This document shows, in pieces, positions 16,921 through 34,487 of a stretch of DNA of 64,000 bases. A program made the position numbers and the translations under genes. A model generated the notes under the pieces. The model did no database searches, had not been told where the DNA came from, and saw only the letters and a list, made by a program, of their open reading frames with translations. This stretch comes from Eledone cirrhosa (Eukaryota): positions 36,456,001-36,520,000 of the forward strand of contig OZ024753.1 of the NCBI GenBank assembly GCA_964016885.1, written 5' to 3'. Every line of letters starts with the position of its first letter. Within the stretch, counting starts at the first letter, position 1.

Positions 16921-17160
16921 GTATGTATATATATATATATATATATACATATATATACATATATATATATATATATATATATATATATATATATATATAT
17001 ATATATATATATATATATATACACACACACATATATATATATATATAATACCAACACTGTTCGTACTGCACTCCTTGTTTTTGTTTTGTTCTTTGCCTAT
17101 ATATATATATATATATATACGATATTAAATAAATGGAAACTATATTTATAAAACCATATC

Positions 17161-17226
17161 TATTTCATTATATATATTTCAGGGATATCATATTAACAAT
17201 ATGCTATGCCTTCCTCAGACAAAATA
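17161..17226 (-). ncRNA. Type I hammerhead ribozyme motif (inverted copy)
   Basis: Reverse complement of 17309-17374. Confidence 0.75.
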
Positions 17227-17308
17227 CAATATAGACAGTTTTATAGATAAATAGATTTGACATACCGTTCAACATCGACTTGTATTTGAAAAGTTGATTT
17301 GGCAGTTG

Positions 17309-17374
17309 TATTTTGTCTGAGGAAGGCATAGCATATTGTTAATATGATATCCCTGAAATATATATAATGAAATA
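17309..17374 (+). ncRNA. Type I hammerhead ribozyme motif
   Basis: TATTTTGT-CTGAGGA-AGG..CCT-GAAA-TATATA-TA-ATGAAATA. Stem I is 8 bp with two G-U pairs, and helix III is palindromic. Confidence 0.8.
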
Positions 17375-17876
17375 GATATGGTTTTATAAATATAGTTTCC
17401 ATTTATTTAATATCGTAAATATACTCCAAATACTTGTCGAGTGCTTTTATATCAGTTATAAATATTTACTAGTTGTAACCCAACAATTTAAATATAACTT
17501 TCCATATATATATATATATATATATATATATATATACGTATATATATATGTATATATATATATATGTATACATATATATATACATATATATACATATATA
17601 TATATACATATATATATATGTTTTTGTTTTGTTCTTTGCCTATATATATATATATATATGTACGTATATATATATATATATATATATATATATATATATA
17701 TATATATATATATATATATATATATATATATATATATATATATATATATATATCTGCGGCCTCGATATGAATACCCCCTCCGCCGCCGTGGTATTTTCTT
17801 CGTGGTTATAAGAGGCTTAGCTCTGTTTCTCGACCGTTATATCGCGTGACTATCTCCCCCTCCGCCTTTTGGGATT

Positions 17877-18076
17877 NNNNNNNNNNNNNNNNNNNNNNNN
17901 NNNNNNNNNNNNNNNNNNNNNNNNNNNNNNNNNNNNNNNNNNNNNNNNNNNNNNNNNNNNNNNNNNNNNNNNNNNNNNNNNNNNNNNNNNNNNNNNNNNN
18001 NNNNNNNNNNNNNNNNNNNNNNNNNNNNNNNNNNNNNNNNNNNNNNNNNNNNNNNNNNNNNNNNNNNNNNNNNNNN
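17877..18076. other. Assembly gap (200 N)
   Basis: Run of N. Confidence 1.
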
Positions 18077-20082
18077 CATCTCTATTTTCCCTCCTTTATA
18101 TATATATATATATATATATATATATACACACACACACACATATATATATATATATACATATATGTATGTATATATATATATATATACATATATACACAGG
18201 TATATATATATGTATATATATATATATATATATATATGTATATATATATACATATATGTATATATATCTATTTTTATATATATATATATGTGTGTGTATA
18301 TATATATATATATATATATATATATATATATGTGTGTGTATATATCTATATATATATCTATATATATATATATATATATATATATATATATATATATATA
18401 TATATATACATATATATGTATATATACATATACATATATATATATATATATATATAGATATATATGTGTGTGTGTATATATCTATATATATATCTATATC
18501 TATATATATATATATATATATATATGTATATATACATATATATATATATATATAATATACATATATATATACACACACACACACATATATATATATATAT
18601 ATATATATATATATATATATATATATATATATATATACATATATATATATACATATATATATACACACATATATATATATATATATATATATATATATAT
18701 ATACATATATATACACTCGCCTACTCTCTCTCTCCCTCTTCCCCCTTACTCTCCTTCAGTTGGTCGTTGTCGAAATATATTACAACATTTTAAATGAGTT
18801 TTCAATTAACTTTAGCGTATGGCACACACACACACACACACACACACACATATACACACACACACACACACACACACACACACACACACACACACACACA
18901 CACACACATACACGCATACACACACGTACACACACACACACATACACACATACACACACACATATAACACACATACACACACGTACACACACACATATAT
19001 ATATATTCACACACAAACACATAGGTTGTGGTGTAGGCTATACGGAGAAGGTTCAAGATATTTATATATATATTTTAAGAAAATAAAACTAAAATAAAAT
19101 TTAAAAAACAAAGAAACAAAATAAAATAGATATTGGGCTCTTTATTTATATATTTACATATTTATCTATCTATTTTTTCTGAAGCTAACATTTTAATAAA
19201 ATTTATTTCAGAACGGCAGTGATATTTATATCACTTACACTTATCAAGCTTTTGAGTAAGTATGCATATATGTACTACGTATGTAAGTGCGTGTGTATGT
19301 GTGCATCACGCCATTATATATGCTTGCGTATATATATATATATATATATATATATATATATATATATATATATATATATATATATATATATATATATATA
19401 CATGCATACATACACACAAACATACATTCATACATACATGCATATATACACACAAACATACATTCATACATACATGCATACATGTATGCATACATACATA
19501 TATATATATATGTGTATATATATATATATTATATACATATATATATATATATACATATATATATATGTATATATATATATACATATATGCATATATACAT
19601 ACATATATATATATATATATATATATATATATATATATATATATATATATATATATATATATATATATATATATATATATATATATATATATACACTTAT
19701 TTATATACATGTATATATATACATAAATATATATATATATATATATAAAGGTTAAAATACTGGAGCGTGTTGGAGTTAAACACCCTCTTCGTATTATAGA
19801 AATGACAGTAAAAGGATATAGCTCAATGTAGTTAAACAATATATACTCATATATATATATTATATAAATATACCTTTTTTTTGAAAATTCAACGCCAACG
19901 ACAAAATACGTATTAAGACTTCAATCTCGTCTTCAACCAATGTTGTTCACATGGGCTGTTCCTGAAATATACACACAAGCACACACAAGCACACACAAAC
20001 ACACATACACACACATATACAGATAGATATATGTGTGTGTGTGAGTGTGCGTGTGTTTGCGTGTGTTTAATATTTTCATGCA

Positions 20083-20386
20083 TATAGTCCCACCTAACTT
20101 CTTGCTGTTGTTTTGTTGTCCTTCATAATATAAGATATTCAGGATTAATATAAACATATACATATAGGTGTATATCTCTCTCTCTCTCTCTCTCTCTCTC
20201 TCTCTCTCTATATATATATATATATATATATATATATATATATATATATATATATATATATATATATATATATATATATATATATATATATATATATATA
20301 CCTATAGGTATATGTTTATATTTATTCGGAATATTTTATATTATGAAGGACAAGAAAACAACAGCAAGAAGTTAGGTGGAACTATA
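20083..20386. repeat. ~88-bp inverted repeat around a (TC)n(TA)n spacer
   Basis: TATAGTCCCACCTAACTTCTTGCTGTTG.. versus ..CAACAGCAAGAAGTTAGGTGGAACTATA. Confidence 0.85.
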
Positions 20387-32107: not shown

Positions 32108-32158
32108 AGATTCCTGATGATTTCTAATGAATGAAACAGTTCTAGTCCTGTAGAATCT
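32108..32158 (+). ncRNA. Type I hammerhead motif in the PLE 3' terminal repeat (family B)
   Basis: AGATTC-CTGATGA-tTTC TAAT GAAt-GAAA-CAG TTCTAGTC CTG-TA-GAATCT, with a GUA cleavage triplet. Confidence 0.8.
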
Positions 32159-32366
32159 CATCTATATTAAAACTTTTATACTCTGCTATGTATTGAGTAC
32201 CTTACTTACTGTGGTTACCTCCGATTCAACCCGGAATAACATATATATATATATATATATATATATATATATATATATATATATATATATAAAAAAAAAA
32301 TATAGGAAAAAGAGGGTTGAAAATGCAATTGGTGTCTAAGAAATTTTATTAACAATAACCTATAAA

Positions 32367-32401
32367 CTTTACCGGTTTCACAGTTTGATGTTTCTCACAA
32401 G
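32367..32401 (-). ncRNA. Degenerate hammerhead-like motif (CCGG-loop type)
   Basis: CTT-gTGAGAA-ACA TCAAAC TGT-GAAA-CCGG-TA-AAG. Core position 3 is mutated. Confidence 0.45.
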
Positions 32402-32758
32402 TAATGAGAGCTGGAGAGATGTGTGTGCATATATATATAGTTGTGTGTACAAGGAAAGAAAAGAGAAATCAACACACCATATGGAAGCTTGGAGTTGATA
32501 TTAACAATTTAACTTAACTTCGCACTGCCAGCAGTGTTAAGACGAAAATATGACTAAATCGTCAAGTACTTGATGATCTACATGTATTTTCATCTTTAAA
32601 CTGTTAGTAGTGCGAAGTGAAGTCAAGCTATATATATATATATATATATATATATACATATATATATATATATATATGTATATATATATATATATGTATA
32701 TATATATATATATATATATATATATATATATATATATATATATATATATATATATATA

Positions 32759-32860
32759 TAGGAACCAGTACTGGTTCCTATTACCCACTCTACTACCTCA
32801 AGTATTGAGTACTTTGGTGCGTTATGGTCCACCTGGTTCCTTACCACATTTCCTTCGTTA
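32759..32860 (+). mobile_element. Minimal family A insert: 22-bp palindrome plus tail
   Basis: TAGGAACCAGT|ACTGGTTCCTA followed by TTACCCACTCTACTAC..AAGTATTGAGTACTT..CCTTCGTTA, within (TA)n. Confidence 0.8.
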
Positions 32861-34422
32861 TATATATATATATATATATATATATATATATATATATATA
32901 TATATATATATATATATATATATATATATATATATATATATATATATATATATGTATGTGTGTGTGTGTGTGTGTGTGTGTGTGTGTGTGTGTGTGTGTG
33001 TGTGTGTGTGTGTGTGTGTGTGTGTGTGTGTGTGTGTGTGTGTGTGTGTGTATATATGTGTGTCTGTATGTGTGTGTGTGTGTATGGTATGCTGTTATTT
33101 GGGGAGATTTAATTGCTATTTTTAGTCGGTTGAGCGTCTATGTATATTCTCGATTTAAATATATTACTATCTTGGGAAATATTTCTAAAGAAGTTTAAGA
33201 AAACGTTTTTTTGTTTTGTTTAATTTTAAAGAATTTAAAGACCTCTTTGAATATTCTATTTAAATATTCAACAAATGTTTACATTTCCTGAGAAAACTAC
33301 AACAAACATGTTTAAATTCAAAATAACAAGGAATAATATTTTATGACATGTTGATCCGATGACTGTTTAGTTGGTCAGTTGTTTCGTTGACAAAACATTA
33401 TAGAAATATTATTTTTTGTTGAAAAGGCATCAGAAATTTAAATAAAAGCAGAAAGATTATGAATTCCTGAAGGACTTTTTCCACATTAATATTTAATACC
33501 ACGAGAACTGAAAAGAGCAACAAACAAAAAATGTCAAACCACCAAACTAGAATTATAAACAGACTTTTGTCATAGAAGCACTGATGTGTTAAAATTTAAA
33601 AACTGTTTTTATATTTTGACTGTGACGCTATTTATATGCAAATTTTTAACCAACATTATTTTAAATAATTAACGAAAATTATAAAAAAGCAAAAAGACAA
33701 GTGTTTAAAAAAAAATAATATTCTGTAAAATCTTGTAAAAATACAATGATGAATGATAAGATAATTATATTCTGGAGAGTGTGGGTGACTAACGAAGAGA
33801 CAATGGTGACAGCAACATTTATATGATTAATTTACGATACAAAGTACACGAAAGACAAAAGATTTGCCATCGAGAGAGAAAAAACTTGCGAATTTTGTTT
33901 GTAAAATTTAGTCGAATATTGTGTATGTGTGTATGTGTATGTATATATATACGTATGTACGTATGTATTTACACACACAAATACAACATCTACACCTACA
34001 CACACGCCTACATACATACTCACGCACACACGCATATATATATATATATATGTATATATATATATATATATATATATATATATATATATATATATATATA
34101 TATACACATATATATATATACATATATATATATACATATATATATATATATACATATATATATATTTATATATATATATATATTTCGTTGACAGATATAT
34201 CAATATGCCCAGACATGCAGATATATTGCCCTTGGTATGACAGTGTGGTCATGGTATATATATATATATATATATATATATATATATATATATATATATA
34301 TATATATATATATATATATATATATATATATATATATATATATATATATATATATTTATATATATATATATATATACACCATGATATTAAATAAATGGAA
34401 ACTATATTTATAAAACCATATT

Positions 34423-34487
34423 TATTTTATTATATATATTTCAAGGGCAACCAAGCCAACCTTGGTGCGCTTTCATCAGATAAAATA
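34423..34487 (-). ncRNA. Type I hammerhead motif (relative of the 17309 family)
   Basis: TATTTTAT-CTGATGA-AAGCGCACCAAG GTTGG CTTGGTTGCCCTT-GAAA-TATATA-TA-ATAAAATA. The adjacent 34383-34422 matches 17121-17160. Confidence 0.85.

Follow-up and report, generated by a model that had tools for sequence, protein, structure and literature searches.

Hammerhead Ribozymes, Two Fixed Ends and a Duplicated Motif in Hydra-Clade Penelope-Like Elements of Eledone cirrhosa

Results

Hammerheads and Their Host Elements

We investigated a 64,000-nt stretch of the Eledone cirrhosa genome (assembly GCA_964016885.1, contig OZ024753.1, positions 36,456,001 to 36,520,000; hereafter the window), in which hammerhead ribozymes lie next to (TA)n microsatellites in copies of what we assign to Penelope-like retrotransposons. 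An earlier note on this DNA had described hammerheads near 17, 21 and 34 kb that share a TA palindrome as helix III, and these are confirmed. A search for the core pattern returned five matches (17317+, 17218-, 21448+, 21219- and 34479-) against a mean of 0.02 in 100 shuffles, none of which reached five, and an independent structural scan recovered these five as type-I hammerheads, each of which has helix III ATATATAT and a predicted cleavage after AUA. Stem I has 8 bp at 17.2/17.3 kb and at 34.4 kb, and 5 bp at 21.2/21.4 kb. The hammerheads at 17.2/17.3 kb (family A) and at 21.2/21.4 kb (family B) form head-to-head pairs with TA runs on either side, and a solo arm carries that at 34.4 kb (family C; Table 1). 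An Rfam scan of the window had no hammerhead family among the best 150 of 463 weak matches, and matches to TA repeats dominated. An assembly gap of about 200 N (17877-18076) lies 370 nt from the family A element.

A fourth family, D, has a stem I as in A and helix III ATGCGCAT. Counted by exact core patterns in the 3.0 Gb genome, the families comprise 17,469 (A), 4,214 (B), 8,506 (C) and 22,367 (D) copies. Long copies encode a reverse transcriptase (RT) and a GIY-YIG-type endonuclease within one open reading frame (ORF), located between two pseudo-long terminal repeats (pseudo-LTRs) 3.3-4.4 kb apart, and an intact 800-aa ORF is found in two of the loci collected from the genome (L212 and L214). 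The ORFs of A and D contain RLRW or RIRW together with DKT, the third residue of the RWK-type motif being T, I or R rather than K. A motif scan found the CxCX5C linker and the CxxC and CxH of the endonuclease in A, B and D, and CCHH was not seen in the alignment. No Pfam family was assigned to the A and D ORFs, and a relative in the window had a GIY-YIG match below threshold.

Canonical hammerheads and (TA)n targeting, both present here, are already listed for the Hydra clade of Penelope-like elements (PLEs; PMC8557442). Judged by ORF motifs and the published clade definition, the hammerheads lie in the pseudo-LTRs of Hydra-clade PLEs, a membership that we regard as nearly certain. An assignment to the Neptune clade was rejected, since DKG and a CX2-5CxxC linker would be expected and DKT and CxCX5C were found. 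The elements were also not accepted as non-LTR retrozymes: the copies are solo, head-to-head or ORF-flanking, and the window contains no tandem array. Another Hydra-type PLE is represented in the window by a 5'-truncated ORF (27804-28868, +) with a CxCX5C linker and a GIY-YIG-like end; it is 34-38% identical to families A and D, and the scan found no hammerhead downstream of it.

Hammerhead Structure and Kinship

Families A and C have a common stem I, stem II layout and downstream sequence, and intermediate subfamilies bridge them. They are one lineage, so their TA helix is not a case of convergence and largely reflects shared descent. The earlier description of the stem II sequences as entirely different therefore does not hold for A (17 kb) and C (34 kb); B (21 kb) is more distant, with an ORF 41-51% identical to that of A. 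The conserved pairing reported for stem I does extend across 24 chosen representatives: stem pairing is kept in 98.3% of cells, and changes on both sides occur in 8 of the 15 stem pairs (0 of 500 shuffles are as high), a covariation figure that is inflated by the relatedness of the representatives. The example quoted in the note carries two one-sided changes (G.U to A-U and U.G to U-A) and no double compensation.

As a monomer, the helix III hairpin is unstable (fold energy +4.7 kcal/mol); helix III is self-complementary, and the homoduplex has an energy of -3.2 kcal/mol. With their conserved core and stems I and II, these are structurally conserved hammerheads of the dimer type, as the note had proposed; minimal type-I hammerheads with a weak helix III are a known dimer type, for which a circular template has been suggested (PMC4209133). 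Across the families helix III varies as a palindrome, the palindrome being retained and the complementarity to TA not. The palindrome likely serves the pairing of ribozyme dimers rather than annealing to the target.

Where the Copies End

The TA helix had also been proposed to let the cleaved RNA 3' end anneal to the (TA)n target. This idea did not survive the mapping of junctions relative to the cleavage site that the note had called for. In a position-ordered sample of 120 copies, 30 from each of the four families, 64 end at a site that we call J2 (43-54 nt after the cleavage site), 47 at a second site, J3 (132-153 nt after it), three read through into the ORF and six end elsewhere; no copy of the 120 ends in helix III. 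Genome-wide, junctions from helix III into (TA)n number 34 against 14,709 intact sites (34/14,743; 0.23%), compared with 10 against 20,186 for the variant ATATGTAT (10/20,196; 0.05%) and 2 against 4,472 for a control TATATAT site upstream of the ribozyme (2/4,474; 0.045%). One J2 pattern alone occurs 12,766 times. The junction rate of the 9-nt TA helix is five-fold above the control (p=0.009), and the variant, in which only 4 nt of TA precede the cleavage site, is on a level with it (p=1.0). The rate thus follows the length of TA homology and not cleavage.

The hammerhead core upstream is kept in 18 of 20 inspected helix III junctions. Where a partner arm is visible, it ends at J3 in 8 of 9 cases; for the ATATGTAT variant the partners are mixed (3 J2, 2 J3). 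We read the helix III junctions as J2 arms that were mis-primed or shortened by 49 nt between two TA runs. Moreover, family D, with its ATGCGCAT helix, inserts into (TA)n equally, is TA-flanked and has J2 and J3 as in A-C. The about 25 published Hydra hammerheads that target (TA)n have helices of the ACTC/GAGT, ACTT/AAGT or ACAG/CTGT type, with no TA helix in the available part of the compilation (PMC8557442 file S2). Together these observations refute the TA helix as the main targeting route, a rejection of which we are about as sure as of clade membership. In two of the 30 family C copies (L150 and L159, 1545-1560 in each) unrelated repeats interrupt the sequence at or next to helix III; the AT-rich helix is thus itself an insertion site.

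J2 and J3 are both fixed sites and constitute the known "tail" signature of PLEs; in a Poseidon element the tail corresponds to two internal RT start sites (PMC11167929). Some junctions enter (TC)n or (GA)n first and then (TA)n (window 21647-21686; loci L147 and L130), and in many TA flanks a unit with a junction base in it is periodically expanded; slippage or repeat addition by the RT is possible.

A Motif behind Each End

In read-through copies of A, B and D, the motif RCUC-N(5-40)-GAGY-RCU follows both J2 and J3, 5-9 nt later; copy 2 is missing from DNA copies that end at J3. The motif has 280 matches in 802 kb of collected loci and 21 in the reversed sequence, counts that come from loci enriched for these families and in which related copies are not independent. 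When pairing at the outer position was left unenforced, distinct sequences had A-U 105, G-C 23, G.U 15 and A-C 11 times, compared with 8, 1, 4 and 7 in the controls. Exchange of A-U and G-C between the two motif copies, and between families, keeps the helix. By eye, the motif is also seen in the 3' tails of Hydra-2_Amil, Hydra-2_Ajap and Hydra-1_Crog (coral, sea cucumber and copepod) and twice before the ORF of Hydra-1_Ajap (PMC8557442 file S7). By the same means it was not seen, within the available part of that file, in Hydra-1_Amil or at the 3' end of Hydra-1_Obim, both of which are consensus sequences that stop shortly after the hammerhead. Two more copies in the window (3369-3401 and 43559-43597, +) belong to other families, of which the collected loci contain many.

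One J2 and One J3 Arm per Insertion

Among 129 head-to-head pairs, 115 join a J2 arm to a J3 arm, four are J2+J2, one is J3+J3, and nine have an unclassified arm. The J2+J3 combination therefore accounts for 115 of 120 classifiable pairs (p=3e-28 against 50%), in a collection partly selected for both hammerheads or for one J2. In pairs from A and C the arms are identical over 92 nt in 36 of 71 cases, compared with 1.2% between insertions, and 14 share private sequence; in family D identical arms occur in 13 of 25 pairs compared with 10% between insertions. Both arms of one insertion derive from one donor. Palindromes at the head-to-head junction are found in the family B pair of the window (Table 1) and in family D.

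The 5' ends of arms have a hotspot between TC and A upstream of the cleavage site: 25 of 90 A/C arms begin 135-144 nt, 29 of 82 D arms 120-126 nt and 13 of 69 B arms 163-173 nt upstream. The hotspot resembles an initiator (Inr), and an Inr-like TCACT has been noted in rotifer pseudo-LTRs (PMC3846280), so that we infer a putative transcription start here. Arms that begin at the hotspot extend across an intact hammerhead, and the cleavage site shows no enrichment of 5' ends (4 of 90 A/C arms within 0-9 nt), which agrees with the use of uncleaved RNA as template in vitro (PMC11167929). In the interval that stem II occupies, 13-42 nt upstream of the cleavage site, no A/C arm has its start (0/90; loci L223-L282).

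In short pairs with one hotspot-reaching arm, this arm is J2 in 15 of 18 (in one of these pairs the measurement of the partner failed). Among 14 informative long/short pairs the J2 arm is the longer one in 6; a long arm can be J2 or J3. The J2 arm is thus not a copy of the J3 cDNA, and a J2 cDNA cannot supply the tail. The simplest reading is that priming took place twice, separately, since fold-back never yields a copy longer than its template and the tail is not present in the J2 cDNA.

Short and long pairs differ in their relation to the hotspot, which is reached by an arm in 43 of 71 short pairs and in 1 of 58 long ones. Among nine more-than-unit copies, eight run 75-730 nt past the hotspot, and none stops there. 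Because long copies shun the hotspot, their template should contain the start site internally, either as a circle made by hammerheads, as proposed earlier (PMC4209133), or as read-through from longer donors. The single hotspot arm among the 58 long pairs led us to reject a scheme that places one RT at each of the two pseudo-LTRs, 5' and 3', of a linear RNA.

Table 1. Arms, predicted hammerheads and motif copies of families A, B and C in the window.
Feature	Position	Strand	Evidence
Family A short arm, from Inr-like 5'-end hotspot (17306) to J2 (17120) into (TA)n; spans hammerhead	17120..17306	-	
Family A second arm, 5'-truncated, ends at J3 (17503, "tailed" end) into (TA)n	17306..17503	+	
Type-I hammerhead, family A, helix III ATATATAT, predicted cleavage after 17169	17161..17226	-	core pattern and structural scan
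Type-I hammerhead, family A, predicted cleavage after 17366	17309..17374	+	core pattern and structural scan, fold
Motif copy 1 (ACTC...GAGT-GCT), family A, 7 nt 3' of J2 position (17415)	17423..17445	+	motif scan
Family B arm, from 5'-end hotspot to J2 (21120)	21120..21343	-	
Type-I hammerhead, family B, predicted cleavage after 21175	21170..21224	-	core pattern and structural scan
8-nt palindrome at head-to-head junction, at family B 5'-end hotspot position	21335..21342	.	
Family B second arm, ends at J3 (21646), then (TC)n, then (TA)n	21336..21646	+	
Type-I hammerhead, family B, predicted cleavage after 21492	21443..21497	+	core pattern and structural scan, fold
Motif copy 1, family B, longer enclosed segment	21554..21596	+	motif scan
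Family C solo arm between two TA runs, ends at J2-type junction (34377)	34377..34494	-	
Type-I hammerhead, family C, predicted cleavage after 34431	34423..34487	-	core pattern and structural scan, fold

Other Features

A further TA-flanked family (G) is represented in the window at 10299-10495, 10527-10632, 1183-1356, 32769-32894 and 43217-43329. It has the motif 8 nt after its first end, forms J2+J3 head-to-head pairs, and carries a long, stable, helix-III-like hairpin after GAAA, with a non-standard core in longer copies (L033 and L130). Locus L120 has, on its reverse strand near 2900, a hammerhead-like motif whose helix III is ACTAGT and whose stem II is short; it is unrelated to A-D. The window also contains a 474-aa open frame (48766-50190, -), which we take to resemble the C-terminal RT and cysteine-rich end of a non-LTR retrotransposon.

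Discussion

The patterns described above lead us to propose that insertion of these elements involves priming at two places on one RNA, each place being set by the motif copy that lies 3' of it, a reading to which we give a probability of roughly 0.6. The RT-endonuclease, probably as two molecules, would bind the two motif copies, nick both strands of the (TA)n target and prime at J2 and J3 through 2-7 nt of local AU microhomology. The J2 cDNA would run ahead and the J3 cDNA follow by displacement; joining of the two cDNA 3' ends by microhomology would then produce a head-to-head repeat with the tail at one end only. Short copies would stem from the 5' end of linear, uncleaved transcripts, and long or more-than-unit copies from a template with an internal start site, most simply a circle excised by two hammerheads paired through helix III. 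In vitro, both strands are cut and extended by a Poseidon PLE, whose reverse transcription begins at two internal positions that match the tail and depends on RNA lying 3' of them; the RNA that it uses is uncleaved (PMC11167929). A more general version, in which a duplicated RNA docking element throughout the clade recruits two RT-endonucleases per RNA, programmed priming at (TA)n generates the inverted repeats and the tail, and hammerhead dimers supply circles as templates for full-length and more-than-unit copies, is offered tentatively, as somewhat less probable than its negation.

Several points weigh against two motif-positioned primings, in addition to the selection of the pairs and the origin of the motif counts mentioned above. 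In family B, identical arms (11 of 25) are little above the 25% found between pairs and are uninformative. Arm lengths are estimates obtained by extension against longer copies, and inversions within the references caused 10 short pairs to be scored wrongly as long. Folding of the motif is weak (z-scores -0.2 to -1.4), and its inner stem beats shuffles in 4 of 56 loop types (p<=0.05), about as expected by chance, so that a well-formed inner stem was dropped as unsupported; the motif may be a sequence motif with a closing helix of 4-5 bp, or may act on DNA. The circle step rests on nine copies, and the long J3-primed copies could come from read-through of flanking (UA)n or from tandem donors. 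Finally, all mechanistic steps rest on genomic patterns.

Among the alternatives, priming by a cleavage product that ends in AUAUAUAUA and anneals to nicked (TA)n could draw on the five-fold excess of helix III junctions, most of which keep the upstream core, and on telomeric PLEs, where repeats adjacent to hammerheads are proposed to pair with telomere overhangs (PMC6431247). The corresponding arrangement, an insertion 3' end at a target-complementary repeat beside the hammerhead, was not found in our elements: no sampled copy ends there, the genome-wide rates are minute and follow homology rather than cleavage, families without a TA helix use the same target, and the mostly J3 partners look as if a J2 arm had been mis-primed or had lost 49 nt. 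We therefore consider cleavage-linked priming very improbable, even when a rare side route is counted in. A single priming, with the head-to-head repeat arising by fold-back self-priming on antisense template or cDNA and the tail by endonuclease resolution, has been proposed in the literature (antisense self-priming in PMC3846280, resolution in PMC8557442 section 6) and fits the junction palindromes and the identical arms. A fold-back product cannot outreach its template, however, and the J2 arm does so in most of the short pairs and in 6 of the 14 informative long/short pairs; the J2 cDNA is without the tail, and the motif copy 3' of each end, outside the copied region, is left unexplained. 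The observations favor twin priming on one RNA over this published model, which we judge improbable.

The two remaining alternatives concern the motif and the ribozyme. The duplicated motif might act on DNA, as a recognition site at which the endonuclease cuts longer intermediates or tandem copies, and not in RNA docking. The Penelope endonuclease of D. virilis reportedly requires tail sequence to cut plasmids (cited in PMC11167929), J2 and J3 are AT-rich and target-like, and the RNA fold of the motif is weak; against this, A-U/G-C exchange between copies and families preserves the helix, the Poseidon ends were mapped as RT start sites on RNA (PMC11167929), and DNA copies ending at J3 are without motif copy 2. 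An action on DNA is in our estimate about as improbable as fold-back priming. The hammerhead, in turn, might have no part in transposition and be a passenger or a regulator at the RNA level, all templates being linear read-through RNAs. Naiad PLEs amplify without canonical hammerheads, hammerhead mutations leave insertion in vitro unaffected (PMC11167929), and 5' ends are not in excess at the cleavage site. Nevertheless, both stems (I and II) and the palindrome persist while their sequence changes, and eight of the nine more-than-unit copies pass the putative start, so that linear RNA initiated there cannot template them. A ribozyme without such a role seems unlikely to us, less so than the other alternatives; it is compatible with twin priming and touches only the template step that separates short from long copies.

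PLEs are the closest retrotransposon relatives of telomerase, and rival accounts have been put forward for how they replicate: how the inverted pseudo-LTRs and the tail may arise, and what the hammerhead may do. The genome studied here contains tens of thousands of copies along with intact ORFs, and their ends yield rules that are sharp and can be tested: an insertion has one each of two start sites, a motif stands behind either site, and templates fall into two classes. If the proposed reading is true, an RNA element that sets the start of the RT at a distance of 5-9 nt would act as a signal that positions the template in a telomerase-related enzyme, and would offer a means of directing insertion to microsatellites.

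Earlier work has described pseudo-LTR hammerheads, the Hydra clade, its targeting of (TA)n and the use of two start sites; the TA helix itself is ordinary. The Hydra clade (Craig et al. 2021, PMC8557442) is alike in the C-terminal GIY-YIG, RW with DKT, CxCX5C, and CxxC with CxH, as well as in the (TA)n target, the pseudo-LTR hammerhead, the inverted 5'-truncated copies and the tail at one end. Our elements differ in their longer units (3.3-4.4 kb vs generally <3 kb), their longer tail (about 90-100 nt vs 30-40), a helix III that is an 8-nt loop-less palindrome rather than 4 bp with a loop of 1-3 nt, and the GxKF/LKF-like stretch retained in families A and D; the available part of that paper mentions neither the duplicated motif nor the J2+J3 rule. 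The Poseidon PLE of Anolis, PAc (Frangieh et al. 2024, PMC11167929), resembles our elements in the two internal RT starts that define the tail, the cutting and extension of both target strands, the required RNA 3' of the starts and the use of uncleaved RNA. It belongs to another clade and has its start sites inside the ORF, and the accessible part of the report describes neither a duplicated motif nor a model for inverted copies.

The dimeric type-I hammerheads of PLEs and non-LTR retrozymes (PMC4209133; bioRxiv 10.64898/2026.07.22.740005) share with ours the type-I fold, the long stem II, the weak palindromic helix III, and the proposed dimer cleavage and circular template. Retrozymes are tandem arrays; here we find solo or head-to-head pseudo-LTR fragments of an autonomous element. 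The closest published form of the annealing idea is found in the Terminons and Athena elements (PMC6431247), in which repeats adjacent to hammerheads are proposed to pair with a DNA target. These elements are without the endonuclease and end beside the ribozyme, unlike ours, whose ends lie 43-54 and 132-153 nt downstream. In the literature covered, which did not extend to Repbase and subscription journals, we found no twin-priming, dimer or template-switch model of Penelope inverted repeats beyond the papers cited. Neither the duplicated motif nor the J2+J3 rule nor the two template classes turned up there, and supplements, Repbase or subscription journals may hold them; the motif beside each end, the rule and the template classes appear to be new here.

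In L1 twin priming, both target strands prime on one RNA, and microhomology joins the cDNAs to give an inversion; the second priming there is opportunistic in its site and yields non-overlapping arms. In contrast, in the elements described here both sites are fixed and adjacent to a motif, and the two arms duplicate the same sequence.

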